From Escherichia coli (GTDB taxonomy: Bacteria > Pseudomonadota > Gammaproteobacteria > Enterobacterales > Enterobacteriaceae), in NCBI RefSeq assembly GCF_003790525.1, contig NZ_CP033635.1: DNA of 64,000 nucleotides, one strand, 5' to 3'. Made by a program: the position numbers and the translations under genes. The notes below the pieces were generated by a model, which ran no database searches, was not told the DNA's origin, and was given only the letters and a program-made list of their open reading frames with translations. Shown in pieces: positions 2,461 to 55,870 of this stretch; position 1 is the stretch's first letter; each line of letters opens with the position of its first letter.

Positions 2461-2577
2461 GATTGGCAGCTACCTGCCAGATAAGGCGTAAACGCCTTAT
2501 CTGGCATACGTTCAGCACATTACCCCCAGGTCGGATAAGACGCGGCAAGCGTCGCATCCGGCACTTCAATGCACAAT
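2461..2577. repeat. REP-like palindromic units in the rlmG-fadH intergenic region
   Basis: gccagataaggcgtaaacgccttatctggc and gtcggataagacgcggcaagcgtcgcatccggcac imperfect palindromes of the REP type. Confidence 0.5.
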
Positions 2578-4623
<2,046 letters not shown>

Positions 4624-4766
4624 TTATGTGGTCGGATGAGTTCTAATTTAGCCGTCGCCGGAGAAAAGGGAAAAGGGGAGTGCGGGGTTTGTGATGGGAT
4701 TCAAAAAGAATACGCCCGTTCGTCATGCCGGACGGCGGTAATACAGTCGTCCGGCATCGGGAAAAA

Positions 4767-14713
<9,947 letters not shown>

Positions 14714-14714
14714 T

Positions 14715-15090
<376 letters not shown>

Positions 15091-15094
15091 AAAG

Positions 15095-16646
<1,552 letters not shown>

Positions 16647-16852
16647 TTAACATCTGTTGTTGTTTTGCACGGTTTTTGTCGGGTATGGATTTGGCGATTG
16701 CTGCGCAAATGCACACTTTCAGGGCAACAACTGCCTGATTTTTGGGCAAGATAATTAACGTTTTCGTATAGTAACAGAGTGAAAGTATTTTAAATCAAGG
16801 GATTAGATTTATGCTTTAATCGCAAATTGCGATCTAAATCAAATTAATCAGT

Positions 16853-16879
16853 TAAAGATAACCGCAGTGGGGCCGACAT
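16853..16879 (+). promoter_or_regulatory. Sigma-28 (FliA) type promoter upstream of aer
   Basis: TAAA at 16853-16856, 15-nt spacer, GCCGACAT at 16872-16879, fitting TAAA-N15-GCCGATAA; about 50 bp upstream of the aer start. Confidence 0.5.
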
Positions 16880-16928
16880 AAACTCTGACAAGAAGTTAAC
16901 AACCATATAACCTGCACAGGACGCGAAC

Positions 16929-18449
16929 ATGTCTTCTCATCCGTATGTCACCCAGCAAAATACCCCGCTGGCGGACGATACCACTCTGATGTCCACTACC
17001 GATCTGCAAAGCTATATCACTCATGCTAATGACACTTTTGTGCAGGTGAGCGGCTTTACCTTGCAAGAGTTACAAGGGCAGCCGCACAACATGGTGCGTC
17101 ACCCGGATATGCCAAAAGCGGCGTTTGCAGATATGTGGTTCACCCTGAAAAAAGGGGAGCCCTGGAGCGGCATCGTGAAAAATCGCCGCAAAAATGGCGA
17201 CCATTATTGGGTGCGGGCCAATGCGGTACCGATGGTGCGCGAGGGAAAAATCAGTGGCTATATGTCGATTCGTACCCGGGCGACGGATGAAGAGATCGCG
17301 GCGGTGGAGCCGCTGTACAAAGCGTTGAACGCCGGACGTACCAGTAAGCGTATTCATAAAGGCCTGGTGGTGCGTAAAGGCTGGCTGGGAAAACTGCCTT
17401 CATTACCGCTTCGCTGGCGGGCGCGTGGCGTGATGACCCTGATGTTTATCTTGCTGGCGGTCATGCTTTGGTTTGTTGCTGCCCCGGTGGTGACGTATAT
17501 CCTCTGTGCGTTAGTGGTATTGTTGGCAAGCGCCTGTTTTGAATGGCAGATTGTCCGCCCGATAGAAAATGTCGCCCGTCAGGCACTGAAGGTGGCGACC
17601 GGAGAGCGTAATAGTGTTGAGCATCTGAATCGCAGCGATGAGCTGGGGCTGACATTACGCGCGGTAGGGCAGCTTGGCCTGATGTGCCGTTGGCTAATTA
17701 ACGATGTCTCAAGCCAGGTGTCCAGTGTCAGAAATGGCAGTGAGACGCTGGCGAAAGGCACCGATGAACTGAACGAACATACCCAGCAGACAGTTGATAA
17801 CGTTCAGCAAACGGTGGCGACCATGAACCAGATGGCGGCGTCGGTGAAACAGAACTCTGCCACGGCGTCGGCTGCTGATAAACTTTCTATCACCGCCAGT
17901 AATGCGGCAGTGCAGGGCGGGGAGGCGATGACTACGGTGATCAAGACAATGGACGATATTGCCGACAGTACCCAGCGCATTGGCACCATTACTTCGCTGA
18001 TTAACGATATTGCGTTTCAGACCAATATTCTGGCCCTGAATGCGGCGGTGGAAGCGGCGCGTGCCGGCGAACAGGGCAAAGGTTTTGCAGTGGTGGCGGG
18101 GGAAGTGCGTCATTTAGCCAGCCGCAGCGCCAATGCTGCCAACGATATTCGCAAGCTGATTGATGCCAGTGCTGATAAGGTGCAATCTGGTTCGCAGCAG
18201 GTACACGCCGCCGGACGGACGATGGAAGATATTGTGGCGCAGGTAAAAAACGTCACCCAGTTGATAGCTCAGATTAGCCATTCAACGCTGGAACAGGCCG
18301 ATGGGCTTTCCAGCCTGACCCGTGCAGTGGATGAGCTTAACCTGATCACCCAGAAAAACGCCGAGTTAGTGGAAGAGAGTGCGCAGGTGTCGGCGATGGT
18401 GAAACACCGCGCCAGCCGACTGGAAGACGCGGTGACGGTGCTGCATTAA
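16929..18449 (+). CDS. aer: Aerotaxis receptor Aer (PAS-FAD sensor with MCP signalling domain)
   Basis: 506-aa ORF; N-terminal PAS region, central hydrophobic hairpin, C-terminal methyl-accepting domain. Confidence 0.9.
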
Positions 18450-18477
18450 TCGGTATGCCGGATCCGGCAATCGGTGA

Positions 18478-19101
18478 TTAATCCAGTTGCGTAATATCAA
18501 AAGCGGCGCGGTCGATCACCGCAATGATCTTTTTTATTTGTGCATCAGTGATATCGCTCTGGTTGACGCGTAAATCCAGCACCGCTTTAAAATTATCCAG
18601 CGCCCGCTTCATTTGCGGGTTCTGGCGCAGCGCAGCGCCAACGCAACGCGATTTGATGCGTTCTTCAATCATCTCTACCTGTTCGCGGTTTTCTTCCAGC
18701 CACTGCGCGCCTTGTTCGGTCAGCGCAATCTGCTTCTTACCACCTTCCTCTTCGCGAATGGTAATCAGCGACTGCTCCTGCAGAAAATCCAGCGTTGGGT
18801 AGATGACGCCCGGGCTTGGGGTGTAATTCCCCTGGGTTAGATTCTCAATCGCTTTAATCAATTCGTAACCGTGGCTGTCATCGCGCGAGAGAATATCCAG
18901 AATCACCAGACGTAATTCACCGTGACCAAAGAAACGTTGCCGACGACCGCCGCCGCGACCGTGGCGACCACCGCAGCATTGACCGTGTTCATGCTGGTGA
19001 CCGTGTCCGCAGTGCTCGTGTTCTGACTTCTCACCTTTGCAGCAGCCCTCATGGCGTGGCTGGCCTTCATGTTTACAACACCCTTCGTGATGATGGCTCA
19101 T
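18478..19101 (-). CDS. yqjI: PadR-family metal-responsive regulator YqjI
   Basis: 207-aa ORF with His/Cys-rich N-terminus (MSHHHEGCCKHEG...) and PadR-like winged helix; divergent from yqjH. Confidence 0.85.
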   Translation of the reverse strand: MSHHHEGCCKHEGQPRHEGCCKGEKSEHEHCGHGHQHEHGQCCGGRHGRGGGRRQRFFGHGELRLVILDILSRDDSHGYELIKAIENLTQGNYTPSPGVIYPTLDFLQEQSLITIREEEGGKKQIALTEQGAQWLEENREQVEMIEERIKSRCVGAALRQNPQMKRALDNFKAVLDLRVNQSDITDAQIKKIIAVIDRAAFDITQLD

Positions 19102-19387
19102 ATCAGCCTCCTTTTGCTTAATTAGATATATCTAATTTATATCTGATATGAGCACTCTTGCAAGAATAAAAATGATTTTTAAATGTGGCTCATCTCACAC
19201 GTAGGCCGGATAAGGCGTTCACGCCGCATCCGACATTGAGCAATGATGCTTGATAAGAGGTTGCGCGTCTTATCAGACTACAGATATATCAGTTCTACAA
19301 ATCGCTTGCATTTATCATGATTAACAATCATTATCATTTACGAAAATTATTTAGATATATCTGATTACTATCACGAAGGCGATAACA
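19102..19387. promoter_or_regulatory. yqjI-yqjH divergent control region with a Fur-box-like site and palindromic operator candidates
   Basis: Perfect 14-bp palindrome ttagatatatctaa at 19122-19135; near-copy ttagatatatctga at 19351-19364; Fur-box-like atgattaacaatcattatc at 19317-19335; REP-like gtaggccggataaggcgttcacgccgcatccgac in between. Confidence 0.5.
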
Positions 19388-20152
19388 ATGAATAACTCCC
19401 CCCGCTACCCGCAGCGCGTTCGCAATGATCTGCGCTTCCGTGAACTGACTGTGTTACGCGTTGAGCGCATCAGCGCCGGTTTTCAGCGCATTGTCCTCGG
19501 CGGCGAGGCGCTGGACGGTTTTACGTCGCGCGGCTTTGACGATCACAGCAAACTCTTCTTTCCTCAACCTGACGCTCACTTTGTGCCGCCAACGGTAACG
19601 GAAGAGGGCATCGTCTGGCCGGAAGGACCACGCCCACCGTCGCGTGACTATACGCCGCTGTATGACGAACTACGCCATGAACTGGCGATCGATTTCTTTA
19701 TTCACGACGGTGGGGTCGCCAGCGGCTGGGCGATGCAGGCGAAACCGGGCGATAAACTTACGGTGGCAGGTCCGCGCGGTTCGCTGGTGGTGCCGGAAGA
19801 TTACGCGTATCAGCTGTATGTCTGCGATGAATCCGGAATGCCCGCACTGCGCCGCCGCCTGGAAACGTTGAGCAAACTTGCCGTTAAACCGCAAGTTAGT
19901 GCGCTGGTTAGCGTGCGGGATAACGCCTGTCAGGATTATCTCGCGCACCTTGATGGTTTTAATATCGAATGGCTGGCACATGATGAGCAGGCGGTAGATG
20001 CGCGTCTGGCGCAGATGCAAATCCCTGCCGATGATTACTTCATCTGGATAACCGGCGAAGGCAAAGTCGTTAAGAATTTAAGCCGCCGCTTTGAAGCGGA
20101 ACAGTATGACCCACAGCGGGTACGTGCAGCGGCTTACTGGCACGCAAAGTAA
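19388..20152 (+). CDS. yqjH: NADPH-dependent ferric-siderophore reductase YqjH (NfeF)
   Basis: 254-aa ORF; siderophore-interacting FAD-binding family; conserved position. Confidence 0.85.
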   Translation: MNNSPRYPQRVRNDLRFRELTVLRVERISAGFQRIVLGGEALDGFTSRGFDDHSKLFFPQPDAHFVPPTVTEEGIVWPEGPRPPSRDYTPLYDELRHELAIDFFIHDGGVASGWAMQAKPGDKLTVAGPRGSLVVPEDYAYQLYVCDESGMPALRRRLETLSKLAVKPQVSALVSVRDNACQDYLAHLDGFNIEWLAHDEQAVDARLAQMQIPADDYFIWITGEGKVVKNLSRRFEAEQYDPQRVRAAAYWHAK

Positions 20153-20172
20153 CTGATATATATAAAGAAAAA

Positions 20173-20198
20173 GGCTGACGATTTCTCGTCAGCCTTTG
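20173..20198. terminator. Hairpin terminator after yqjH, also downstream of the tRNA remnant
   Basis: ggctgacg-atttct-cgtcagcc followed by tttgct. Confidence 0.5.
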
Positions 20199-20205
20199 CT
20201 ATGTC

Positions 20206-20252
20206 TGGTGGCCCCTGCTGGACTTGAACCAGCGACCAAGCGATTATGAGTC
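20206..20252 (-). tRNA. ileX: 3'-terminal 47 nt of a tRNA-Ile (ileX-type) gene; truncated tRNA remnant serving as island att core
   Basis: tggtggcccctgctggacttgaaccagcgaccaagcgattatgagtc is the reverse complement of a tRNA 3' half (T-arm, acceptor stem, CCA); similarity to tRNA stops abruptly at 20253. Confidence 0.7.
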
Positions 20253-20448
20253 ATGAGGCAAGTTCGTTCTATATTGTTTTTGTTTGTTCGTGATTGCTTT
20301 ATTAGTTGTTTGTAATCAATAAATTATGTGATTTTCCCTGTCTCCGCTTGGTTCCGTTTTTTCTTCATTGTACGATCGTTACCTGACCCATTACCTGACC
20401 CAAAATCACGAGTTATTCTGATTGTTACTGGTTTAGAAAAGAGGTTCT

Positions 20449-21765
20449 ATGGCCGTCAATCTTACTGAAACAGCCATCCGAGCATTGAAAGCAAAAAAGA
20501 CATCGTTCTATGTCTGGAGCAACAGCTCTCAACGTGGCACTGGACGACTTGGTGTCAAAGTTCAGCCTTCTGGCAGCAAGATTTTCTATTTCCGCTATTA
20601 CGTGGAAAAAGGGAAAAAAGAAAGATTCATTCAATTGGGTATATGGCCTGAGATGAAACTGGCCACAGCGAATGAACTGACAAAAAAGTATGGTGCCTGG
20701 CTCATTGAAGGAAAGGATCCCCAGGCAGAACTGGAACGACAACAGTTTGCAGAACAGCAGCGGATACAACTCCATCAATCACAGGGCTCATTTGAAGCAT
20801 TGATTCATGGTTATGTTAACAAAATGAAAATTGATAATAAGAGGACATGGCAGGATGTTCTGAAACGCCTTGAAAATGAATGCTATACAGTGATCCCCCG
20901 TGAAACTAAAGCTAAAGATGTGACTTCCGGACAGATTAAACATATCCTGGCCGGGATCATTCAGCGCGGTGCTGTGGTTCACTCTAACCGGATCCGTTCT
21001 TACCTGATGGCTGCATTTAACTATGGACTGAAAGCAGATAACGATCCGATGAACACAAGTGTAGGGATTACTTTTGGGCTGGAGGCAAATCCGGTGTCAG
21101 TGATACCGAAACAGTCATCTGCTGAAAAAGTCGGTGATACCTGGCTGACACTTGAAGAGTTGCGTTTTCTAATGGAACATTTTGCTGAAGCAACCAACGT
21201 TGGATTATTGATGCAACATTTGATCCGATTCTGTATCTATACCGGAGGGCAACGTCCTTTCGAAATGATCGCCAGTCAGTGGTGTGATGTTGATTTTCAA
21301 CAAAAAACGCTGCTGGTGACTGCTGATGTCTCTAAAAATAAACGAGAGCATTTGATACCGTTGACTGAATCAGCATTACAGGAATTATCCTGTGTGCAGG
21401 AGTTAACAAAAGAAAAATCCAGCCCTTACATTTTTCCACTTTCGACTAATGGTAAGCGTCCGGTTCGTACGGACAGTCTGGCTCGCGCTATCATGTATTT
21501 CCGGGCTTTTAATCCTGACTTTAAAATTTTTACAGCACGTGACTTACGTCGGACCTGTAAAACGTTAATGGGAGAAGCTGGGATCAGTAAGGAAATCCGC
21601 GATCGTATTCAAAATCATGCGTTGAACGATGTCAGTTCAAAACATTATGATCGATACGATTATTTGCCAGAAAAACGCAGAGCACTTGAGATCTGGGAGG
21701 ACCGGGTTAATAACTATCAACAGCAAACAGGCAATAATGTTGTCAATCTGTTTGGCAGAAGGTGA
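20449..21765 (+). CDS. P4-type tyrosine integrase
   Basis: 438-aa ORF; C-terminal catalytic region with R...HxxR...Y arrangement (ARDLRRTCKTLM, HALNDVSSKHYDRYDY); directly adjacent to the tRNA fragment. Confidence 0.9.
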   Translation: MAVNLTETAIRALKAKKTSFYVWSNSSQRGTGRLGVKVQPSGSKIFYFRYYVEKGKKERFIQLGIWPEMKLATANELTKKYGAWLIEGKDPQAELERQQFAEQQRIQLHQSQGSFEALIHGYVNKMKIDNKRTWQDVLKRLENECYTVIPRETKAKDVTSGQIKHILAGIIQRGAVVHSNRIRSYLMAAFNYGLKADNDPMNTSVGITFGLEANPVSVIPKQSSAEKVGDTWLTLEELRFLMEHFAEATNVGLLMQHLIRFCIYTGGQRPFEMIASQWCDVDFQQKTLLVTADVSKNKREHLIPLTESALQELSCVQELTKEKSSPYIFPLSTNGKRPVRTDSLARAIMYFRAFNPDFKIFTARDLRRTCKTLMGEAGISKEIRDRIQNHALNDVSSKHYDRYDYLPEKRRALEIWEDRVNNYQQQTGNNVVNLFGRR

Positions 21766-40716: not shown

Positions 40717-41511
40717 TGAGCCGCCCCGGGAATCCTGGAGACTAAACTCCCTGAGAAAGAGGTAAACAGAATGACTAAAAATACTCGTTTTTCCCCCGAA
40801 GTCCGTCAGAGGGCGATTCGTATGGTTCTGGAAAGTCAGGGCGAATATGACTCACAGTGGGCGGCAATTTGTTCCATTGCCCCAAAGATTGGCTGTACAC
40901 CGGAGACTCTGCGTGTCTGGGTGCGCCAGCATGAGCGGGATACCGGAGGCGGTGATGGCGGGCTCACCACCGCTGAACGTCAGCGTCTGAAAGAGCTGGA
41001 ACGTGAAAATCGTGAACTGCGCCGCAGTAACGATATCCTTCGCCAGGCTTCCGCTTATTTTGCGAAGGTGGAGTTCGACCGCCTCTGGAAAAAGTGATGC
41101 CACTGCTGGATAAGCTGCGTAAGCTGTACGGGGTCGGACCGGTATGCAGTGAACTACATATTGCCCCGTCAACGTATTACCACTGTCAGCAACAGCGACA
41201 TCATCCTGATAAACGCAGTGCCCGTGCGCAGCGCGATGACTGGCTGAAGAAAGAGATACTGCGCGTATACGATGGGAATCATCAGGTATACGGTGTGCGT
41301 AAAGTCTGGCGTCAGTTGTTACGGGAAGGAATCAGGGTAGCCAGATGTACAGTGGCGCGCCTCATGGCGGTTATGGGACTTGCCGGTGTTCTCCGGGGTA
41401 AAAAGGTCCGCACTACCGTCAGCCGGAAAGCCGTTGCCGCAGGCGACCGCGTAAACCGTCAGTTTGTGGCAGAACGTCCTGACCAGTTGTGGGTGGCTGA
41501 TTTTACTTACG
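40717..41511 (+). mobile_element. IS3-family element (IS629/IS1203-like) 5' part: left IR, orfA and orfB N-terminal section, ending at the group II intron
   Basis: Left end tgagccgccccgggaatcctggagac; orfA 40771..41097 ([26 protein letters not shown]...), orfB from 41094 reading ...QLWVADFTY up to 41511. Confidence 0.65.
40771..41097 (+). CDS. IS3-family transposase OrfA (HTH/leucine-zipper subunit)
   Basis: 108-aa ORF; conserved IS3-family orfA; 4-bp overlap with the orfB start. Confidence 0.75.
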
Positions 41512-44269
<2,758 letters not shown>

Positions 44270-44497
44270 TCTTAAATGACTCTGAGGTGTCTGTTAAACC
44301 TGTGGCGATTCAGTCTATTAAACCTGTGGCGATTCACTTTATGGTGTCATAAACTTAAATCTAGCGCCGGGTAGAACAAGTTAATCGAACGATGTAGCGG
44401 CCATTTAGGCGTTACAGAAAGAACAGAATTTTAAATTTATAGTGAAGCCGTTGCAGCAACTTTGTGGGGTGCAACCAACACTGAACAGGAAAAGAAA

Positions 44498-46921
44498 ATG
44501 GATCATAGTGTACATAACAAGCTCATCTCATTTATTTGGAACATTGCCGACGACTGTTTACGTGATGTGTACGTTCGCGGTAAGTACCGCGATGTGATTT
44601 TACCTATGGTGGTATTACGACGTTTAGATACGTTACTTGAACCCACCAAAGAAGCCGTGCTTGAAGAGGTCAAGTTCCAAAAAGAAGAGATGCAAGCCAC
44701 GGAGCTTGATGATGAACCATTGAAGGCGGCTAGTGGTTATGTTTTTTACAATACATCTAAATGGACCCTGAAATCCCTGTTCAACACCGCAACGAATAAC
44801 CAACAGATATTACTCGCCAACTTTGAAGAGTACCTGCTTGGCTTTAGCGATAATGTTAAAGAAATCATTGAATGCTTTAACCTCAAGTCGCAAATTCGTC
44901 ACATGGCCTCAAAGCAAGTCCTTCTTGATGTCGTCGAAAAGTTTGTTTCCCCTTACATCAACTTAACTCATGAAACGATCGAAGACCCAGATGGCAACAA
45001 GATGCCAGCCCTTACTAACCTGGGTATGGGGTACGTGTTCGAAGAGTTGATCCGTAAGTTCAACGAGGAGAATAACGAAGAAGCCGGTGAGCACTTTACA
45101 CCTAGGGAAGTGATTGAGCTGATGACACACTTGGTTTTTGACCCAGTGAAAGAGCAGCTACCATTGACCATGACCGTTTACGACCCTGCGTGTGGTAGCG
45201 GTGGTATGCTCACTGAATCTCAAAACTTCATTGAAGAGAAATACCCGAACGACAGCCGAGATATTTACCTTTACGGCAAAGAGATCAATGACGAGACCTA
45301 CGCGATTTGTAAATCGGACATGATGATCAAAGGTAACAACCCTGAGAACATCAAGGTAGGCTCAACCTTGTCTACCGACGAGTTTGCGGCTTCTCGCTTT
45401 GACTTTATGTTGTCTAACCCGCCATACGGTAAGAGTTGGGCGTCTGAACAGAAGCATATTAAAGACGGTAGTGACGTGATTGACCCACGTTTTAAGGTTA
45501 GCCTGAAAGACTATTGGGGAAATCTCGAAGTGGTGGATGCCACGCCACGTTCAAGTGATGGCCAGCTGCTCTTTTTAATGGAAATGGTCAACAAGATGAA
45601 AGATCCGAGCGTAAGCCCATTAGGCAGCCGGATTGCTTCTGTTCATAACGGCTCATCGCTCTTTACCGGTGATGCGGGCGGTGGCGAAAGTAACATTCGT
45701 CGCTTCATCATTGAAAACGACATGCTAGATGCCATCGTTCAGTTACCAAATAACCTGTTCTACAACACCGGCATTACCACTTACATTTGGGTGTTGAACA
45801 ACAATAAACCTGAGGCACGTAAAGGTAAGGTGCAACTGATTGATGCCAGCTTGCTATACCGTAAGTTGCGTAAGAACTTAGGTAACAAAAACTGCGAATT
45901 TGCGCCTGAGCACATCACGGAAATCACCGATACTTACCTCGCGTGTGTGGACGTTGAAAGAGCACTTGATGCAAACAATGATCCTATCGGTATCGCCAGT
46001 AAGGTCTTTAGTAATGACGACTTTGGCTACTACAAAGTCACTATCGAGCGCCCAGATCGCCGCAAAGCCAAGTTTACTCAAGATGCCATAGCCCCACTGC
46101 GTTTTGATAAGCAACTTAGTGAAGTGATGGAGTACGTGTACGCAGAGCACGGCGAACGTGTTTACGAAAAAACTGGCTACGGGTCAGATCAGAAAAAGAG
46201 CTTCTTAAAATCCATCGAGAAAGACATTCTTTCTTGGTGTGAAGATAACGACATCAGTCTCAATGCTAAGGCTAAGGCCAAACTGCTTGATGTGAAACAC
46301 TGGCTGGCGCTAAAAGCATTGCTTGAAACTGCACAAACGCTGATGGCTGACATCGGTAGCATTGAATTTGATGACTTCAATAGCTTTAAAACCCAAGTTG
46401 ATAAATCGCTAAAAGCCCATGCTATTAAGCTTTCAGCACCTGAGAAAAATGCCATTCTTCACGCGGTGAGCTGGTATGACGAAACCGCCAAGAAAGTGGT
46501 TAAAAAGGTAGTTAAATTAACGGGTGATAAATTAAACGACCTGCTGGAGCGCTATGAGTGTGAAGTCGCTGACTTGCCAGATTTTGGTTATTACCCCGTT
46601 CCTTCAGCAGAAGGCGGTAAAAAAGGCGAGTATATCACTTACGAGACCAATTCAGACCTGCGAGATACAGAATCTGTTCCATTAAAGCAAAGCATTTACC
46701 AGTACTTCCTAGATGAAGTGAAGCCTCATGTCGATGAAGCATGGATAAACCTAGATACGGTAAAAATTGGCTATGAAATCAGCTTCAATAAGTATTTCTA
46801 CCGTCATAAACCGCTGCGTAGTTTAGAAGAGGTCGCAACCGACATCATCAACCTAGAACAAAAAGCCGAAGGTTTGATTGCGCAGATTCTTGGTGCGGAA
46901 GTAAAAAAGGTTCAGGGGTAA
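44498..46921 (+). CDS. hsdM: Type I restriction-modification system methyltransferase subunit HsdM (long form, ~807 aa)
   Basis: Track ORF from 44462 (TTG); ATG at 44498 with AGGAAAAG RBS; N6-adenine MTase motifs DPACGSGGML and NPPYG; ~300-aa C-terminal extension. Confidence 0.85.
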   Translation: MDHSVHNKLISFIWNIADDCLRDVYVRGKYRDVILPMVVLRRLDTLLEPTKEAVLEEVKFQKEEMQATELDDEPLKAASGYVFYNTSKWTLKSLFNTATNNQQILLANFEEYLLGFSDNVKEIIECFNLKSQIRHMASKQVLLDVVEKFVSPYINLTHETIEDPDGNKMPALTNLGMGYVFEELIRKFNEENNEEAGEHFTPREVIELMTHLVFDPVKEQLPLTMTVYDPACGSGGMLTESQNFIEEKYPNDSRDIYLYGKEINDETYAICKSDMMIKGNNPENIKVGSTLSTDEFAASRFDFMLSNPPYGKSWASEQKHIKDGSDVIDPRFKVSLKDYWGNLEVVDATPRSSDGQLLFLMEMVNKMKDPSVSPLGSRIASVHNGSSLFTGDAGGGESNIRRFIIENDMLDAIVQLPNNLFYNTGITTYIWVLNNNKPEARKGKVQLIDASLLYRKLRKNLGNKNCEFAPEHITEITDTYLACVDVERALDANNDPIGIASKVFSNDDFGYYKVTIERPDRRKAKFTQDAIAPLRFDKQLSEVMEYVYAEHGERVYEKTGYGSDQKKSFLKSIEKDILSWCEDNDISLNAKAKAKLLDVKHWLALKALLETAQTLMADIGSIEFDDFNSFKTQVDKSLKAHAIKLSAPEKNAILHAVSWYDETAKKVVKKVVKLTGDKLNDLLERYECEVADLPDFGYYPVPSAEGGKKGEYITYETNSDLRDTESVPLKQSIYQYFLDEVKPHVDEAWINLDTVKIGYEISFNKYFYRHKPLRSLEEVATDIINLEQKAEGLIAQILGAEVKKVQG

Positions 46922-46927
46922 GTCGTT

Positions 46928-48238
46928 ATGATGAAGATTTCTGAAATGCCGAAATATGACGATTATGTAGATTCTGGGGTTGAATGGTTGGGACGAGTAC
47001 CTGCTTCTTGGGAATTAACACGATTAGGCACTCGCTTTAATGAGCGTAGATCTAAAGTTTCAGACATTGACTACCCCGCACTCTCCGTAACAAAAAAAGG
47101 CGTTCTACCTCAATTAGATAATGCGGCCAAAACAAAAGATGGCGATAACAGAAAGCTAGTAAAAGAGGGTGACTTTGTTATAAATAGCCGCTCTGATCGG
47201 AAAGGTTCTAGTGGAGTATCTGACAGAGATGGATCAGTATCGCTTATAAATATAGTGCTTAAACCAAAAGGGATTCATCCAAAGTTTTCTGAGCATCTTT
47301 TGAAAAGTCATGCATTTATTGAGGAATACTATCGTGTTGGACGTGGAATTGTCGCAGATTTGTGGACTACTCGATACGATGAAATGCGGACGATTACTAT
47401 ATCTGTTCCTTCACTAGAAGAGCAAACCCGTATCGCCAACTTCCTAGACAAGAAAACCGCTCTAATCGACGAAGCGATTTCGATCAAAGAAAAGCAAATT
47501 AATCTGTTAAAAGAACATAAGCAGATCATCATCCAACAGGCGGTGACCCAAGGGCTTGATCCCAATGTGCCAATGAAAGACTCCGGTGTGGATTGGATTG
47601 GAGATATTCCAGAGCATTGGGAAGTTGTGCCTCTAAAAAGGTTGGCGGTCTTGAGCCCTTCTGTGAAAGTTTCAAATAGAAAGTCCAAAGAATTAGTTAC
47701 TTTCTTAGCGATGGAAAAGGTTTCAACAGATGGATTTATTGATCAAGATACATTAATGCCTATATGTGATGTGAGCCAAGGTTTTACGGTTTTTAACCGG
47801 GGGGATGTGATTGTTGCAAAAATTACACCTTGCTTTGAAAATGGGAAATCTGCTTGGCTTAACAATCTTCAAACTGAGTTTGGATACGGCTCAACCGAGT
47901 TTCACGTTTTAAGATGTGGTCAGAGAATTATAGGAAGTTTTCTCTACTTAATCGTTAGTTCGCCCCTTTTTCTTAATGCCGGTGAGGCTATGATGACTGG
48001 TTCAGCTGGTCAGAAGCGCGTGCCTAGTTCATTTATCCAAAACTTTCCTACCGCAATTCCCGGAGTTGCAGAGCAAGAAAAAATAGTATCAAAGGTAAAA
48101 GAGCTGTTTTCACAGATTGATGTTGTTGTGGCTTCTACGGTAAATCAAATCGAAAAGCTCAAAGAATACAAAACCACCCTGATCAACAGCGCCGTGACAG
48201 GAAAAATAAAAATCACCCCAGAAATGGTTGAGCAATAG
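46928..48238 (+). CDS. hsdS: Type I R-M specificity subunit HsdS (two target-recognition domains)
   Basis: 436-aa ORF 6 bp after hsdM; duplicated architecture with conserved central and C-terminal repeat regions. Confidence 0.8.
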   Translation: MMKISEMPKYDDYVDSGVEWLGRVPASWELTRLGTRFNERRSKVSDIDYPALSVTKKGVLPQLDNAAKTKDGDNRKLVKEGDFVINSRSDRKGSSGVSDRDGSVSLINIVLKPKGIHPKFSEHLLKSHAFIEEYYRVGRGIVADLWTTRYDEMRTITISVPSLEEQTRIANFLDKKTALIDEAISIKEKQINLLKEHKQIIIQQAVTQGLDPNVPMKDSGVDWIGDIPEHWEVVPLKRLAVLSPSVKVSNRKSKELVTFLAMEKVSTDGFIDQDTLMPICDVSQGFTVFNRGDVIVAKITPCFENGKSAWLNNLQTEFGYGSTEFHVLRCGQRIIGSFLYLIVSSPLFLNAGEAMMTGSAGQKRVPSSFIQNFPTAIPGVAEQEKIVSKVKELFSQIDVVVASTVNQIEKLKEYKTTLINSAVTGKIKITPEMVEQ

Positions 48239-48247
48239 GAAGCGAAT

Positions 48248-49411
48248 ATGTTCACGGTAAATTATCAGACCAACAGGATTAGTCCGGTTAAGACGAAGAG
48301 ATTCAGTGAGTTGGGCTTTACTGAGCGCAAAAATCTTCAGGAATGGTTGGCACACGAGCCTTCCGCACTGGGTGAAGAGCTGCTGATTATTCAAAAAGAG
48401 TTCGATGGCTTTGATGACACCCGTGAACGCTTAGATTTACTGGCACTGGATAAAGATGGCAACTTGGTCATTATTGAAAACAAGCTGGACGATAGTGGCC
48501 GCGATGTGGTGTGGCAGGCGCTTAAATATGCCTCCTACTGCGCAAGTTTAACCAAAGCGCAAATCGTTGAAATTTACCAGCAGTACTTAGACCGCTATGA
48601 GCCTGTAACAGGAGAGGTTGACTTGTTTAATACCCCTGCAAGTGCCTCTGCTAGAATATGTGAGTTTTTGGATGCGCCCGATCTCGATGAGTTAAAGCTC
48701 AACCTGGGTAACAGCCAGCGCATTATGTTAGTTGCGGCAAACTTTCGCAAAGAAGTGACCAGCACCGCGCTGTGGTTATTGGGTCAAGGCATTAGCATTG
48801 CCTGCTTCAAAATCACGCCTTATTCACTGGGTGAACAGCTACTGATTAATATTGACCAGATCATTCCAACGCCAGAAGCGAAAGAGTTGATGATCGGCAT
48901 TAATGCCAAGGAAGCGGAAGAAAAAACCACCGAAGTGGTACTAAAAAACCGCCATACCGTGCGTCGCGAGTACTGGGAGCGTGCCTTAGAGGCGTTTCAG
49001 AAAAGCTCTTGCCAACTCTATAACAACATTAGCCCAAGCAAAGATCATTGGTTATCAGCAGGCTCAGGGCTAAGTGGATGTCCGTATAACCTGATATTTC
49101 TGCAAAAAGAGCTTCGAGTAGAGCTTTGGATCAGCCGTGGGGTTACCGAAGAGAATAAATACCTTTTTGATTTGTTGAGTCAGTCCAAACAAGACATTGA
49201 GCATACTTTTGGTGCAGAACTTGAGTGGATGAGGCTGGATGAGAAGAAATCTTGCCGTATCCAGTTTTCGACCAAAGCTGACGGGTTTAACAAAGAGACT
49301 TGGCCCCAAGCGGTTGCGTGGCACTTAGAGCAGATGACAAAGTTAGAAAAAGCCTTAAAAGGACCGCTGCAAAAAGCGGCTGAGGCAATGAAACAGAAGA
49401 ATTTTGATTAA
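48248..49411 (+). CDS. PD-(D/E)xK nuclease-fold protein with DUF4268-like C-terminal region, embedded between hsdS and hsdR
   Basis: 387-aa ORF; RERLDLLALDKDGNLVIIENKLDD ... QALKYASY gives a D / ExK / QxxxY (RecB-type) motif series; 9 bp after hsdS and 14 bp before hsdR. Confidence 0.5.
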   Translation: MFTVNYQTNRISPVKTKRFSELGFTERKNLQEWLAHEPSALGEELLIIQKEFDGFDDTRERLDLLALDKDGNLVIIENKLDDSGRDVVWQALKYASYCASLTKAQIVEIYQQYLDRYEPVTGEVDLFNTPASASARICEFLDAPDLDELKLNLGNSQRIMLVAANFRKEVTSTALWLLGQGISIACFKITPYSLGEQLLINIDQIIPTPEAKELMIGINAKEAEEKTTEVVLKNRHTVRREYWERALEAFQKSSCQLYNNISPSKDHWLSAGSGLSGCPYNLIFLQKELRVELWISRGVTEENKYLFDLLSQSKQDIEHTFGAELEWMRLDEKKSCRIQFSTKADGFNKETWPQAVAWHLEQMTKLEKALKGPLQKAAEAMKQKNFD

Positions 49412-49425
49412 GGGAATTTACAATT

Positions 49426-52400
49426 ATGGTCAGTCAAACCAATGAACAAGCATTAGAGTCGGCCATTGAGAAATGTCTGGCTGGGATCAGTACTGAAGAG
49501 CTTAAAGAGGGACTGAGTCAGCAGTCACTGGGTGCTGGATACTTCATTGGTGCTGCTAGTGACTTTAATATGCAATATGCCATTGATGAACGTTTTTTCT
49601 GGCAATTTCTGCAAAAGACACAAGAAGTAGAGTTGGCCAAACTGCAAAAGAACAACCCCTCAGATTGGCAACGTAAGTTACTCGAACGATTTGACCGACT
49701 GATTAAGAAGCATGGCATTCTTCATTTACTTAAGAAAGGGCTAAGCGTAGACGATGCTCATTTCAATTTGCTCTATCCAGCCCCTTTGGCAAGTAGTAGT
49801 GAGAAGGTAAAGCAAAACTTTGCAGATAACGTGTTTAGTTGTACTCGCCAAGTGCGCTATTCCATGGTAAATCCCCTACAAGAAATCGACATGGTATTGT
49901 TTATCAACGGAATACCCTTGATAACGCTGGAGTTGAAGAACGCATGGACCGGGCAAACAGCACGTTATCACGGCCAAAAGCAGTATCGAGATGATCGGGA
50001 TGCAACTCAGCCATTGCTGACCTTTGGCCGCTGCCTAGTGCATATGGCGGTCGATACCGACGAAGTGTATATGACCACCAAGTTATCAGGTAGCAGTACA
50101 TTCTTCTTGCCGTTCAATAAAGGTCACAATCTTGGACAAGGCAACCCGCCGAATCCATCTGGCCATAAAACGGCATACCTATGGCAAGAAGTATTCACTA
50201 AAGACAGCTTGGCGAATATTATTCAGCATTTTGTGCGTCTGGATGGGTCAAGCAAAGATCCATTACCAAAGCGAACCCTGTTCTTTCCTCGATACCATCA
50301 ATTGGATGTGGTGAGAAAATTAGTAGACCATGCCGCCCAGCACGGTGTCGGTCAGACTTACTTAATTCAACACTCAGCCGGTTCAGGTAAGTCTAACTCG
50401 ATTACCTGGGCAGCTTATCAGCTAATTGAAACCTATCCTGCTTCGTCTGATGTGGCAGGCGGAAAAAGCTTGGAGCAGCCGTTGTTTGACTCTGTGATTG
50501 TGGTCACCGATAGACGCCTATTGGACAAGCAGCTGCGGGATAACATTAAAGAGTTTTCTGAAGTAAAGAACATTATTGCCCCAGCGAATAAGTCTTCTGA
50601 GCTTAAGCAGGCGCTGGAGAATGGCAAAAAGATTATTATAACGACGATTCAGAAATTCCCGTTCATTATTGATGGTATCGCCGATCTTAGTGACAAGCGC
50701 TTTGCAGTGATCATCGATGAAGCACACAGCTCACAGTCTGGTTCGGCGCATGACAATATGAACCGAGCGATGGGCAAGTCTGAAGTCGAAGAGGCAGAAG
50801 ATGCTCAGGATAAAATCCTTCAGGCGATGAGATCGCGTAAGATGCGCGGGAATGCGTCGTACCTGGCATTTACAGCGACACCAAAAAACAGCACTTTGGA
50901 GAAATTTGGTCAACGCCAAGAAGATGGCTCTTACAAGCCGTTTCACTTGTATTCGATGAAACAAGCCATTGAAGAAGGCTTCATCTTGGATGTGCTGGCA
51001 AATTATACGACGTACAAAAGTTATTATGAGATTGAGAAATCAATTGCTGATAACCCTGAGTTTGATACCAAAAAGGCGCAGAAAAAACTCAGAGCTTATG
51101 TAGAACGAAGCCAGCAAACAATTGATATCAAGGCAGAGATTATGCTGGAGCATTTTGTTCCGCATGTCGTGAATACGAAAAAGCTCAAAGGTAAAGGTAA
51201 AGGAATGGTGGTCACTCAAAATATTGAGGCGGCCATTCGATACTACAAAGCGATAAGGCGAATACTTGAGGAGCAAGGAAACCCGTTTAAAGTTGCCATT
51301 GCTTTCTCAGGAACCAAAGAAGTTGATGGTATTGAATATACCGAAGCAGATATTAATGGTTTTGCCGAGTCAGATACCAAAGATATGTTTGATACCGATG
51401 AGTATCGACTTTTAGTGGTTGCTAACAAGTATCTGACTGGGTTTGACCAGCCTAAGCTTTGCGCCATGTATGTAGATAAGAAGCTCGCCAGTGTCTTGTG
51501 TGTTCAGGCGCTATCTAGGCTCAATCGCAGTGCACCTAAGCTAGGGAAGAAAACAGAAGACTTGTTTATCCTGGATTTTTTCAACTCGGTTGAAGATATT
51601 CAATCAGCATTCGATCCTTTCTATACAGCAACGTCATTGTCCCAAGCTACAGATATAAACGTACTGCACGAGTTGAAAGATGAAATGGACGATGTCGGTG
51701 TGTACGAGTGGTATGAAGTTGAAGACTTTGTGACGCGTTATTTCAAGAATGAAGACGCCCAAACACTCAGTCCAATCATTGATATTGCCGCAGCGCGGTT
51801 TGACCATGAACTAGATCTTGAAGCTGAAGCTAAAGTGGACTTTAAGATTAAAGCCAAACAGTTCGTTAAAATCTATGGGCAGATGGCTTCTATCATGCCT
51901 TATGAAATGGTCAGCTGGGAAAAACTGTTTTGGTTCCTGAAGTTTTTAATACCGAAATTGAAAGTGGAAGATCCCGATGCTGATGCTATTGATGAGCTTC
52001 TCGATTCTGTCGATCTGAGTTCATACGGTTTGCAACGTGTGAAGCTTAACCACAGCATTAAACTTAGTGACCAAGAAGCGGAGCTTGATCCTCAAAATCC
52101 GAACCCACGTGGGGTGCATGGCGGTGAAAAAGAAACTGACCCGCTGGATGAAATCATTCGCACATTTAATGAGCGATGGTTCCAGGGCTGGAGTGCCACA
52201 CCTGAAGAGCAAAAGGTTAAGTTCGTGAACATCGCTGAAAGTATCCGCAATCACCCTGACTTCGAATCGAAATACAAAAACAACCCAGATCCCCATAATC
52301 GAGATTTGGCCTTCGAAAAAATGCTCAAGGAAATCATGCTGCAACGCCGTAAAGATGAACTTGAGCTCTACAAGTTGTTCGCAGGAGATTCAGCATTTAA

Positions 52401-52443
52401 AGCCTCGTGGACGCAAAGTATGCAACGAATGGTAGGTAGGTAG
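49426..52443 (+). CDS. hsdR: Type I restriction enzyme endonuclease/helicase subunit HsdR
   Basis: 1005-aa ORF; SF2 helicase motifs (HSAGSGKS Walker A, IIDEAHSS DEAH box) downstream of an N-terminal nuclease region. Confidence 0.85.
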   Translation: MVSQTNEQALESAIEKCLAGISTEELKEGLSQQSLGAGYFIGAASDFNMQYAIDERFFWQFLQKTQEVELAKLQKNNPSDWQRKLLERFDRLIKKHGILHLLKKGLSVDDAHFNLLYPAPLASSSEKVKQNFADNVFSCTRQVRYSMVNPLQEIDMVLFINGIPLITLELKNAWTGQTARYHGQKQYRDDRDATQPLLTFGRCLVHMAVDTDEVYMTTKLSGSSTFFLPFNKGHNLGQGNPPNPSGHKTAYLWQEVFTKDSLANIIQHFVRLDGSSKDPLPKRTLFFPRYHQLDVVRKLVDHAAQHGVGQTYLIQHSAGSGKSNSITWAAYQLIETYPASSDVAGGKSLEQPLFDSVIVVTDRRLLDKQLRDNIKEFSEVKNIIAPANKSSELKQALENGKKIIITTIQKFPFIIDGIADLSDKRFAVIIDEAHSSQSGSAHDNMNRAMGKSEVEEAEDAQDKILQAMRSRKMRGNASYLAFTATPKNSTLEKFGQRQEDGSYKPFHLYSMKQAIEEGFILDVLANYTTYKSYYEIEKSIADNPEFDTKKAQKKLRAYVERSQQTIDIKAEIMLEHFVPHVVNTKKLKGKGKGMVVTQNIEAAIRYYKAIRRILEEQGNPFKVAIAFSGTKEVDGIEYTEADINGFAESDTKDMFDTDEYRLLVVANKYLTGFDQPKLCAMYVDKKLASVLCVQALSRLNRSAPKLGKKTEDLFILDFFNSVEDIQSAFDPFYTATSLSQATDINVLHELKDEMDDVGVYEWYEVEDFVTRYFKNEDAQTLSPIIDIAAARFDHELDLEAEAKVDFKIKAKQFVKIYGQMASIMPYEMVSWEKLFWFLKFLIPKLKVEDPDADAIDELLDSVDLSSYGLQRVKLNHSIKLSDQEAELDPQNPNPRGVHGGEKETDPLDEIIRTFNERWFQGWSATPEEQKVKFVNIAESIRNHPDFESKYKNNPDPHNRDLAFEKMLKEIMLQRRKDELELYKLFAGDSAFKASWTQSMQRMVGR

Positions 52444-52591: not shown

Positions 52592-52922
52592 GTGGCACAC
52601 TGAATTTGGCCACCTGAACAGAGGTGATATGCTCACCTCAGAACAACACAGGTGCTCCAATGAAAAAAAGAAATTTCAGCGCAGAGTTTAAACGCGAATC
52701 CGCTCAACTGGTTGTTGACCAGAACTACACGGTGGCAGATGTCGCCAAAGCTATGGATGTTGGCCTTTCCACAATGACAAGATGGGTCAAACAACTGCGT
52801 GATGAGCGTCAGGGCAAAACACCAAAAGCCTCTCCGATAACACCAGAACAAATCGAAATACGTGAGCTGAGGAAAAAGCTACAACGCATTGAAATGGAGA
52901 ATGAAATATTAAAAAAGGCTAC
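52589..52922 (+). mobile_element. IS911 5' part: left IR and truncated orfA, interrupted by IS30
   Basis: tgaagtggcacactgaatttggccacc terminal repeat; orf[36 protein letters not shown]... ends abruptly after ...ILKKAT where IS30 terminal sequence begins. Confidence 0.7.
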
Positions 52923-53685
52923 TGTAGATTCAATCTGTCAATGCAACACCCCTTTCAATTATCTCTTTCGGTGTTTTGAACTTCAGTGTCTTTCTCGGTC
53001 TGTTGTTTAGCTGAGCAGCAACCAGATCTAGTTCATGTTGAGTATATTGGGCAAGACATGTCTTTTTAGGAAAGTACTGCCGAATTAGCCCATTTGTGTT
53101 CTCATTTGTTCCCCGCTGCCAAGGACTCTGAGGATCGCAGAAGTAAACTTTAACGCCGGTGCTGACAGTAAATTCTAGATGTCTGGCCAGTTCCATTCCT
53201 CTGTCCCATGTCAGTGATTTTCTGAGTTCTGACGGTAAACTCAGGAATTTGTCGGTAAGAGCCTGATTTACTGAGACAGAATCTTTGCCCCTGAGTCTAA
53301 GGATGATCGTATAACGTGATTTTCGGTCTACAAGTGTGGCTATATGAGAGTTTTTTGTACCTGAGACTAAATCGCCCTCCCAATGCCCCAGAGAGCGTCT
53401 GTTATCGATATTTCGGGAACGTTCGTGAATTGGTGTTCCGTTCACTATGTTAATCGTACCTCTTTCGCCTTTGCGGGTATGACGCCTGCCATGGCGAAGG
53501 CTATGCGACCGTCGCAGATGCTGTATATTCAGGTGGTGTAGCGCTTCACGGCTACGAAAGTACAGCGTTTTATAAATTGTCTCAGGTGATATTCGCAGCG
53601 TTTTTTGACGTGGTTTTGTTCGCCTTAACCATCCTGATATTTGCTCTGGAGACCATTTCATCTCCAGCTTTTCCAGAACAAGGTA
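52923..53685 (-). mobile_element. IS30 3' portion (right IR plus C-terminal ~255 codons of the transposase), 5'-truncated
   Basis: Terminal tgtagattcaatctgtcaatgcaacacc at 52923; transposase frame (track ORF 52930..53847) is IS30-like from ...LVLEKLEMKWSPEQISGW... to ...[10 protein letters not shown]; upstream ORF codons derive from unrelated sequence. Confidence 0.7.
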
Positions 53686-54271
53686 AGCGTAAACCGACCG
53701 CCGTATGTAGCCATTAGACAAGAATTGGTAACTTAGACGCCCATCTGACACAGACGGACATCTAAGTATGGAATTACAGGACTGGCGAAAAGAACCTCTA
53801 AAAAGTATTCGAATGAATTCAAACTTCGTATGATTGACTGGCATCACAACCCGGTGCTTGTGTGGCCCAGATTGCTCGAGAAAATGGCGTCAATGATAAT
53901 GTTATTTTCAAATGGCTCAGACTTTGGCAAAACGAAGGGCGTATATCGCGGCGTCTTCCGGTAACAACCTCTTCTGACACTGGCGTTGAATTATTACCTG
54001 TGGAGATAACGCCGGATGAGCCGCAAGAACCGGTGGCTGCTCTTACTCCGTCTTTATCCACCCAGACTACTGTCAGTGCCAGCTCCTGCAAGGTGGAGTT
54101 CCGTCACGGTAACATGACGCTGGAAAATCCTTCACCAGATCTGCTCACAGTGTTGCTCCGTGAACTGAGCGGGAGGGGACAATGATCTCACTCCCGTCAG
54201 GTACCCGCATCTGGCTGGGTGCCGGCATTACCGATATGCGTAAATCCTTCAACGGATACGACATATGCTGA
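53686..54271 (+). mobile_element. IS66-family 5' portion: left end, tnpA (orf1) and the first ~30 codons of tnpB
   Basis: Begins gtaagcgtaaaccgaccgcc; ORF 53862..54185 (MAQIARENGVNDNVIFKWLRLWQNEGRISRR, HTH-like); 54182 starts MISLPSGTRIWLGAGITDMRKSFNG (IS66 TnpB N-terminus) then stops. Confidence 0.5.
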
Positions 54272-54997
54272 AGGAGGAGCAGTAATGGATTAAGTGATAA
54301 CAAATGCCCAGAAATAGAGGTTTAAATCCTGCTTAGTTAGTACATAAATACTATTTTGATGAAAATTATTATATGTCACCTCGGATTTTAATCAGGCGCC
54401 CAGATTAAATCAAGTATTGAGCGCCTGATTATGTTTATTCATTAATATCTGTCATTGATTGTCTTATTATCAGTTACCCCCGTCTTAATCAGAGTTTTCA
54501 TTTATTTTTAATGCATAATCAGATGCCGCCTCATCATTATCCTCAGTATTATCATAGCCGAAAACTTCTCCCGGGCACGGGCGTTCACGATAATAGTCAT
54601 CGTTATAGTTTTCATCGTCAGATAATGATATGTCGTATTCTGAATATGATTCACCACAATTATACATAAAATCATCTCCTTTGGGATTGTTACAATAATT
54701 AGTGAGTTTATTCGAAAAAATAATGAGCGCCAGACCAATCCACCCGACTTTTGATTATAATCATGAAGATACCTGTCTCAGTACAAATAGAATCAAACTC
54801 AATACAGCATGATTCACCTTTATATTCTCTCAGGGAAACCAAATACCACTATTCAACTATTAAGAATAAAATTCTGGAGGTGCGATTATCTGAAGATACC
54901 TGCATCCTAAATAATTTCAGACAGATATTATCTCCGTGAATCCCCCGCCACCTTTCCGGTGCGCGGGGTTTTGTCTTTTTTCACCGGGAATACATGT

Positions 54998-55870
54998 ATG
55001 AATCCGTCTGATGCCATTGAGGCAATTGAAAAACCACTGGCCTCCCTGCCTAATTCGCTTTCCCGCCATATCCTCGAACATCTGCGCAAACTCACCAGCC
55101 ACGAACCCGTGATTGGCATTATGGGTAAAAGCGGGGCCGGTAAATCCTCACTCTGTAATGCACTGTTTCAGGGGGAGGTCACCCCGGTCAGTGATGTTCA
55201 CGCCGGCACCCGGGAAGTGCGGCGCTTCCGTCTGAGTGGCCACGGTCACAGCATGATTATCACTGACCTGCCCGGGGTGGGCGAGAGCCGGGACAGGGAT
55301 GCAGAGTATGAAGCCCTGTACCGTGACATTCTGCCTGAACTTGACCTGGTACTGTGGCTGATTAAAGCCGATGACCGTGCCCTGTCTGTGGATGAGTATT
55401 TCTGGCGACACATCCTGCACCGGGGACATCAGCAGGTGCTGTTTGTGGTGACGCAGGCCGACAAAACGGAGCCCTGCCATGAATGGGATATGGCCGGCAT
55501 TCAGCCTTCTCCCGCACAGGCACAGAACATTCGTGAGAAAACAGATGCGGTATTCCGGCTGTTCCGGCCCGTACATCCGGTTGTGGCCGTATCGGCCCGC
55601 ACCGGCTGGGAACTGGATACGCTGGTCAGTGCGCTCATGACAGCACTTCCCGACCATGCCGCCAGTCCCCTGATGACCCGCCTGCAGGACGAGCTGTGCA
55701 CGGAATCTGTCCGGGGGCAGGCCCGTGAACAGTTTACCGGTGCGGTGGACCGGATATTTGACACGGCGGAGAGCGTCTGTGTTGCCTCTGTGGCTCGTAC
55801 GGTTCTGCGTGCCGTCCGTGACACGGTGGTCTCTGTTGCCCGCGCTGTATGGAACTGGATTTTCTTCTGA
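54998..55870 (+). CDS. YeeP/YfjP/YkfA-family P-loop GTPase
   Basis: Track ORF 54959..55870; start placed at MNPSDAIEAIEK; Walker A GKSGAGKSS and DLPGVGE G3-like motif; sits upstream of Ag43 as in CP4-44. Confidence 0.7.
   Translation: MNPSDAIEAIEKPLASLPNSLSRHILEHLRKLTSHEPVIGIMGKSGAGKSSLCNALFQGEVTPVSDVHAGTREVRRFRLSGHGHSMIITDLPGVGESRDRDAEYEALYRDILPELDLVLWLIKADDRALSVDEYFWRHILHRGHQQVLFVVTQADKTEPCHEWDMAGIQPSPAQAQNIREKTDAVFRLFRPVHPVVAVSARTGWELDTLVSALMTALPDHAASPLMTRLQDELCTESVRGQAREQFTGAVDRIFDTAESVCVASVARTVLRAVRDTVVSVARAVWNWIFF

Follow-up and report, generated by a model that had tools for sequence, protein, structure and literature searches.

A 64,000-nucleotide stretch of DNA from Escherichia coli (contig NZ_CP033635.1; hereafter the window) contains a type I restriction-modification (R-M) operon with an additional gene located between hsdS and hsdR. 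This gene encodes a protein of 387 amino acids (aa), in which an N-terminal nuclease domain of the PD-(D/E)xK type, related to NucS, is fused to a C-terminal DUF4268 domain. By analogy with characterized systems, the protein is proposed to be an autonomous modification-dependent restriction nuclease that travels as cargo of the type I operon and would target hypermodified phage DNA, a reading that is given a probability of about 0.6.

According to this proposal, the protein would be a self-sufficient endonuclease of the restriction type, carried in the type I operon and made from the same transcript. Its NucS/RecB-like domain, with D63, E77 and K79 accompanied by Q90 and Y94, would cut DNA, and DUF4268, via a long helix, would provide target selection and/or dimerization. 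The substrate would most likely be phage DNA with hypermodified bases, of which the glucosyl-hydroxymethylcytosine found in T-even phages is an example, and the host would gain a type IV-like coverage of phages escaping the neighboring type I enzyme. Autonomy is proposed because the type I system does not need this gene to be complete, as HsdR holds a nuclease motif of its own, and because the gene is found alone in other genomes. Hypermodified phage DNA appears as the most probable target because of the analogy with MdgA and with the GmrSD enzymes that bear DUF4268, and a complementary role next to the type I enzyme is suggested because the same has been argued for TgvAB in a type I operon of Vibrio cholerae.

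The operon and its ribosome binding signal are arranged as follows:

44462..46921 (+): hsdM, long-form type I methyltransferase (PADLOC MTase_I, E=3.4e-268; NCBIfam hsdM; RefSeq annotation of the identical locus)
46928..48238 (+): hsdS, specificity subunit (PADLOC Specificity_I, E=2.3e-118)
48237..48242 (+): AGGAAG, a Shine-Dalgarno-like hexamer read directly from the sequence, 5 nucleotides (nt) upstream of the ATG of the next gene and overlapping the hsdS stop codon
48248..49411 (+): the gene under study, 387-aa NucS-like PD-(D/E)xK nuclease fused to DUF4268 (PADLOC PDC-S11; protein WP_001349632.1)
49426..52443 (+): hsdR, type I restriction subunit (NCBIfam hsdR, E=2.2e-62; PADLOC REase_I)

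The open reading frame (ORF), which starts with ATG, was confirmed with both the ORF list and the sequence itself. An earlier interpretation of this DNA, made from the letters alone (the sequence-only reading), had placed a 387-aa ORF 9 bp after hsdS and 14 bp before hsdR, and these gaps match exactly, with hsdS ending at 48238 and hsdR starting at 49426. The motif AAGGGA is read 10 nt upstream of the hsdR ATG, and no promoter-like or terminator-like sites were found on the + strand at the hsdS-ORF or the ORF-hsdR junction. Because of the short gaps, the Shine-Dalgarno-like hexamer, the lack of such sites at the junctions, and a G+C content that is even over the four genes (0.40-0.47), cotranscription of hsdM, hsdS, the ORF, and hsdR is predicted, which is a reasonable reading of the locus. 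HsdR has a nuclease motif of its own (D155...E169-x-K171) and full helicase domains. E. coli LR-72 has a chromosomal locus 100% identical to this segment, in which the gene is labeled only as "DUF4268 domain-containing protein". The start of hsdM differs between the program-called ORF (TTG at 44462) and RefSeq (ATG at 44498, 36 nt downstream; MDHSVHNK...).

The protein itself is divided into the following parts:

48248..48865 (+): N-terminal nuclease domain, aa 1-206, with the catalytic core at aa 26-94 (E26, E51, D63, E77, K79, Q90, Y94)
48434..48436, 48476..48478 and 48482..48484 (+): catalytic codons of D63, E77 and K79, respectively
48872..49000 (+): long helix connecting both domains, aa 209-251 (AlphaFold secondary structure)
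48959..49363 (+): DUF4268 domain, aa 238-372, with the order alpha-beta3-alpha2-beta2-alpha and conserved W243, W327 and W352

The nuclease domain adopts the restriction-endonuclease-like alpha-beta-beta-beta-alpha-beta fold and holds the D...(D/E)xK and QxxxY signatures of PD-(D/E)xK nucleases of the RecB/NucS branch: D63 lies in DLLALD, E77-N-K79 in IIENK, and Q90 and Y94 in QALKY. These residues are conserved in an alignment of 67 homologues that are 29-59% identical (alignment A1), where all sequences hold E26, D63, K79, and Y94, 66 of the 67 hold E77, 66 hold Q90, and 65 hold E51. The sequence-only reading had named a nuclease of the RecB/Cas4 type and had made this assignment depend on the motif residues being kept among homologues within a nuclease family. 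They are kept, and the family is one of nucleases, of the RecB/NucS branch; the Cas4 part of the assignment did not stand. The only cysteine conserved in at least 90% of A1 is C186, compared to the four iron-sulfur cysteines of Cas4, and no Cas4 match appeared in Pfam or NCBIfam.

In Pfam, the N-terminal half obtains only weak matches to PDDEXK_4 and NucS_C, and the NCBIfam NucS match (NF003270; E=2e-5) scores 23.7 bits, far below the cut-off of 216, over aa 25-101 only. Searching the PDB with the single protein gave no match, and with the A1 family profile it returned NucS at E=0.006, one designed protein, and nothing else; NucS is the closest solved structure. When the A1 profile is compared with the active-site segment of Pyrococcus NucS (2vld), D63, E77, K79, Q90, and Y94 correspond to D160, E174, K176, Q187, and Y191. 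Catalytic activity of the domain as a nuclease is predicted from these features.

The C-terminal half, which the sequence-only reading had likened to DUF4268-type domains, matches Pfam DUF4268 (PF14088) with E=2e-39 over aa 238-372, covering positions 1-138 of the 140 in the model. DUF4268 is known as a recurrent C-terminal accessory domain of the GmrSD-type type IV enzymes (PMC4619093, PMC5714182). The top structural neighbors of the domain are the secretion chaperones of type III secretion systems (SicP, SycN, CesT-type) and the YbjN proteins, which are polypeptide binders. Foldseek comparison of the DUF4268 model with AFDB50 returned almost only unannotated "DUF4268 domain-containing protein" entries from many phyla, with no functional names. 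No recognized reader domain for modified bases (SRA, PUA/EVE/YTH, winged helix, DUF262, or similar) was found in the protein. Relatives with other architectures include P0172 (726 aa) and P0229 (739 aa), which consist of four or five tandem DUF4268 domains and no nuclease domain, and P0244 (822 aa), which apparently holds two NucS-like modules and has no DUF4268 match in Pfam.

The protein belongs to a large family that had already been proposed to act in defense. The gene is conserved: among 1.84 billion cluster representatives searched, 5540 clusters (formed at 50% identity) match at E<=1e-3 and 478 at E<=1e-30, and most of the matching relatives are around 370 aa long and align over their full length. 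The PADLOC model PDLC04913, of family PDC-S11, matches with E=4.5e-182 over aa 1-383 of the 387 (profile positions 1-373 of 375), and seven more PDC-S11 models match at E<=2e-30. The PDC families were derived from genes nested in type I R-M, bacteriophage exclusion (BREX), and defense island system associated with restriction-modification (DISARM) operons under the principle of "guilt by embedding", and entered PADLOC as untested candidates (Payne et al., bioRxiv 10.1101/2024.01.29.577857). The gene of the window is thus a full-length member in the same embedded setting, on the same strand within hsdM-hsdS-ORF-hsdR, of a family that is itself a predicted defense family. The suggestion of the sequence-only reading that a second defense activity may reside in the operon is supported by this match and by the recurrent embedding described below, but it is not new, as it corresponds to the published rationale for PDC-S11.

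Characterized proteins of this architecture are MdgA and MdgB, single-gene systems formed by a predicted nuclease and DUF4268, which were recovered from a functional metagenomic screen (PMC12366544; Cell Host Microbe 2025, doi 10.1016/j.chom.2025.07.005). With either of them, E. coli is protected from T4 but not from T4-GT7, which has unmodified cytosines, and MdgA protects against Mu as well (PMC12366544). Purified MdgA degrades T4 DNA, which contains glucosyl-hydroxymethylcytosine, much better than T4-GT7 DNA, and its E77A variant is inactive (PMC12366544). The protein of the window likewise joins nuclease and DUF4268 in one polypeptide, and the glutamate of its ExK motif is residue 77, as is the case in the own numbering of 50 of the 67 A1 members. 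This architecture and the number of the glutamate make it a strong inference that the family is that of MdgA. They differ in origin, as MdgA comes from a metagenomic insert and the gene of the window from a type I operon. The modification dependence proposed here would follow from this analogy.

Other systems share part of these features. TgvAB is a type IV system located inside the type I R-M operon of V. cholerae VPI-2, and has been argued to complement it against hypermodified phages (PMC11411939). TgvAB resembles the present case in being nested, and the GmrSD enzymes often hold a C-terminal DUF4268; however, catalysis in TgvAB and GmrSD relies on DUF262 ParB-like and DUF1524 HNH domains instead of PD-(D/E)xK. 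In addition, TgvAB consists of two genes, and its homologues are embedded in 79 of 1341 cases (~6%; PMC11411939), compared to 37 of the 62 informative loci of the family studied here. Another type I-embedded gene, prrC, lies in the prrABD type IC operon of EcoprrI and acts against T4, which resists type I enzymes; the prrC product is sequestered by the type I enzyme (PMC3874165). PrrC, however, is an ABC-ATPase anticodon nuclease for tRNA(Lys) under control of the type I complex, and neither ABC-ATPase nor PrrC anticodon-nuclease domains were matched by the protein of the window in Pfam, NCBIfam, or PADLOC. A search on the Campylobacter rlo genes yielded no usable link. Among phages, only a family of unknown function was matched in PHROGs, and tblastn against phage genomes gave three weak partial matches, so this is not a typical phage gene.

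The survey of homologues in other hsdMS...hsdR operons that had been suggested for this gene was carried out with one genome per species, comprising 80 loci with relatives 53-87% identical, in which ORFs were called and HsdM, HsdS, and HsdR were detected with hidden Markov models seeded from the proteins of the window. The loci are biased toward relatives of at least 53% identity, since the scan used 15 closer sequences. The embedded arrangement is recurrent: in 37 of the 80 loci hsdS (or hsdM) and hsdR flank the gene on the same strand, and stop and start codons frequently overlap or almost abut, and in another 17 it adjoins type I genes in a different manner (after hsdR, before hsdM, or divergently). 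No type I gene was found within at least 6 kb on either side in 8 loci, and 18 were uninformative because the end of the contig was too near. Three relatives that are 74-81% identical (L017-L019) have no type I genes within 8 kb.

The neighboring type I systems are diverse, forming 11 HsdR clusters below 40% identity, with embedding between S/M and R in four of them. Relatives at 75% identity can adjoin an HsdR that is 77% or merely 21-23% identical to that of the window. Distant homologues follow both patterns: P0227, 35% identical, is again found in the order M-S-X-R (X being the homologue) with gaps of 0-12 bp, and among homologues ~31-60% identical, P0155 lies ~6 kb from an hsdR gene, and P0121, P0138, P0173, and P0252 stand alone, some of them by housekeeping genes. 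These stand-alone homologues indicate that the protein has no obligate partner. Furthermore, known defense genes accompany the DUF4268 gene in the gap between hsdS and hsdR of related operons, namely DarT/DarG, Septu PtuA with an HNH partner, GmrSD-like proteins in pairs (a TgvAB-like arrangement), SoFic, and PDC-S23/S05. The slot is evidently a cargo site for defense genes. Examples of this gap cargo are found at:

L059, 9148..10875
L014, 9661..11642
L006, 9161..12546
L032, 3657..4670
L029, 9155..10174

Two further recurrent gap genes, of the types found at L029 6739..8013 and L037 7258..8001, had no match in PADLOC.

The operon as a whole is mobile. Its extent can be drawn from blastn comparison of the window with two integrative and conjugative element (ICE) loci and one plasmid locus:

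44313..52591, approximately (+): mobile four-gene cassette (blastn against L090, L092 and L002; annotation of the identical LR-72 locus), with insertion sequence (IS) remnants on both sides

Of 5426 complete E. coli genomes, 63 carry the same cassette, which occupies 42 sites in chromosomes and 23 in plasmids. Proteins with 97-100% identity are found in E. coli, Vibrio, Proteus, Providencia, Morganella, Alteromonas, and Marinomonas, among others. At the nucleotide level, the cassette is found with 94-100% identity on SXT/R391-type ICEs, ~110-kb plasmids, and chromosomal islands across E. coli, Vibrio, Proteus, Providencia, Alteromonas, and Marinomonas. The commonest allele, P0073 (98% identical; more than 1000 contigs), is located in an SXT/R391-like ICE with the order rumAB, RNase T, a WYL/BrxR regulator, hsdM-hsdS-X-hsdR, a cyclic oligonucleotide-based antiphage signaling system (CBASS) operon formed by SAVED-HNH and CD-NTase, and traI (L090-L094, locus 2387..21164). 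This layout matches the defense "hotspot 5" of these elements (bioRxiv 10.1101/2020.12.16.423150). Hotspot 5 of ICEVchInd6 restricts T2, T4, and T6 in E. coli, although the gene responsible was not identified (bioRxiv 10.1101/2020.12.16.423150). Within cassettes that are otherwise 94-99.6% identical, the target-recognition regions of hsdS in the window (46987..47440 and 47638..48145) find no match in the ICE and plasmid copies, so specificity swapping is taking place in a fixed cassette; the DUF4268 gene stays 96-99.6% identical among the ICE and plasmid copies compared. On plasmid pM160133_p3 (NZ_CP022167.1; locus L002), the four-gene cassette is 99.8% identical and lies near a recombinase and a 5'-3' exonuclease. 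The plasmid carriers measure ~105-120 kb and include non-mobilizable ~110-kb plasmids of E. coli, which are reminiscent of phage-plasmids.

Several other explanations have to be weighed against an autonomous modification-dependent nuclease. A NucS/EndoMS-type endonuclease with a housekeeping role in mismatch repair is suggested by the closest solved structure and the weak NCBIfam and Pfam matches, but appears highly improbable. The score lies far below the NucS cut-off and is confined to aa 25-101, no match to the N-terminal DNA-binding and dimerization domain of NucS was reported for the protein in Pfam, and the protein holds DUF4268 instead. Moreover, the gene is moved by ICEs and plasmids at 97-100% identity across Vibrio, Proteus, Alteromonas, and E. 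coli, and occurs in just 63 of 5426 E. coli genomes; it is mobile and defense-linked, and not a gene of core repair. A role within the type I enzyme itself, as an accessory or regulatory subunit (for example, an extra cleavage module, or a subunit acting in restriction alleviation or in the repair of self-inflicted breaks), would agree with the tight spacing, the predicted cotranscription, and the long co-inheritance with hsd genes in two HsdR lineages. This role is very unlikely, since the D...ExK motif of HsdR is intact, its helicase domains are complete, and the gene is found with unrelated type I families and also alone. EcoKI and EcoR124I, two well-studied type I systems, work without this gene, which counts against such a subunit as well. 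As identities for the protein, NucS mismatch repair, Cas4, a PrrC-like tRNase, and an HsdR accessory nuclease were all rejected on their domains and motifs together with the evidence from context.

The linkage to type I operons leaves room for a PrrC-like guard, in which the nuclease would be kept latent by the HsdM/S/R complex or bound to it, and released once an anti-restriction factor of a phage has put the type I enzyme out of action, acting as an abortive-infection back-up. The gene lies where prrC is found in EcoprrI, a system in which the type I enzyme sequesters PrrC (PMC3874165), the linkage is very tight (37 embedded and 17 adjacent among the 62 informative loci), overlaps of its start or stop codon with hsdS or hsdR are frequent, and the association holds over 11 HsdR clusters and down to 35% identity. 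Even so, a guard is unlikely: homologues stand alone beside housekeeping genes, the relatives in L017-L019 lack type I neighbors within 8 kb, the position with respect to hsdR varies, the protein has no ABC-ATPase or anticodon-nuclease domain, and MdgA, probably of the same family, is active both as a single-gene system and in purified form. It also seems unlikely that the chaperone-like DUF4268 binds a phage protein or another cue of infection, instead of modified DNA, and thereby turns on a non-specific nuclease, although its nearest folds bind polypeptides and proteins made of four to five tandem DUF4268 domains only do exist. Another reading, with a small but slightly greater chance of being correct, is that DUF4268 represents a new class of sensor, similar in fold to secretion chaperones and YbjN and unrelated to all known readers of modified bases, and that the affinity for type I operons reflects a functional link. 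One possibility here is that the nuclease is loaded or licensed by the HsdMS/HsdR complex, or triggered when modified DNA or anti-restriction proteins block this complex.

Compared with these alternatives, an autonomous modification-dependent nuclease remains the preferred reading, and there are several points that weigh against it. The activity of the allele in the window, including that on modified DNA, is predicted, and the membership in the MdgA family is deduced from the architecture and the coincidence in the E77 numbering, not from an alignment. IS remnants clip the cassette of the window, which is also devoid of the WYL regulator gene found upstream in the ICE copies, and its expression is a prediction too. 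The type I linkage is unusually tight, with 54 of the 62 informative loci adjacent, which could mean functional coupling rather than simple cargo; likewise, in the two largest HsdR clusters, gene and type I system seem to have been inherited together over a long divergence. That the protein is independent of HsdR in this particular cassette is probable, and the role given to DUF4268 is putative.

If the protein is a modification-dependent nuclease, one single operon would restrict both unmodified and hypermodified phage DNA, which would be of relevance for the host range of phages used in therapy and for the way in which ICEs shape phage susceptibility. It would also raise the mechanistic question of how a chaperone-like DUF4268, which is fused to GmrSD enzymes as well, could recognize modified DNA. 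Defense cargo in type I operons has already been published, as has the family, as PDC-S11 and probably validated as MdgA; because of this, the present case is mainly a well-documented member accompanied by a quantified survey of its context. Most interest lies in what the DUF4268 fold does and in the reason for the unusual fidelity of the family to type I operons.

The cassette is surrounded by remnants of other mobile elements. Directly upstream, an ORF for a group II intron reverse transcriptase/maturase (42333..43691, +) lies inside remnants of IS3-family transposases (40771..44239), and the same ORF is annotated as a frameshifted ltrA in LR-72. Past hsdR, the region 52624..54185 contains an IS30 fragment (52930..53847, -) and pieces of the IS66 family, recognized by identity with L001. 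Beyond these pieces follows a CP4-type island segment with a GTPase (54959..55870), cah/Ag43, an antirestriction protein, RadC, and a CbtA/YeeU toxin-antitoxin pair; the segment ends near a tRNA-Ile gene. An antirestriction gene is therefore located ~10 kb from the restriction cassette.
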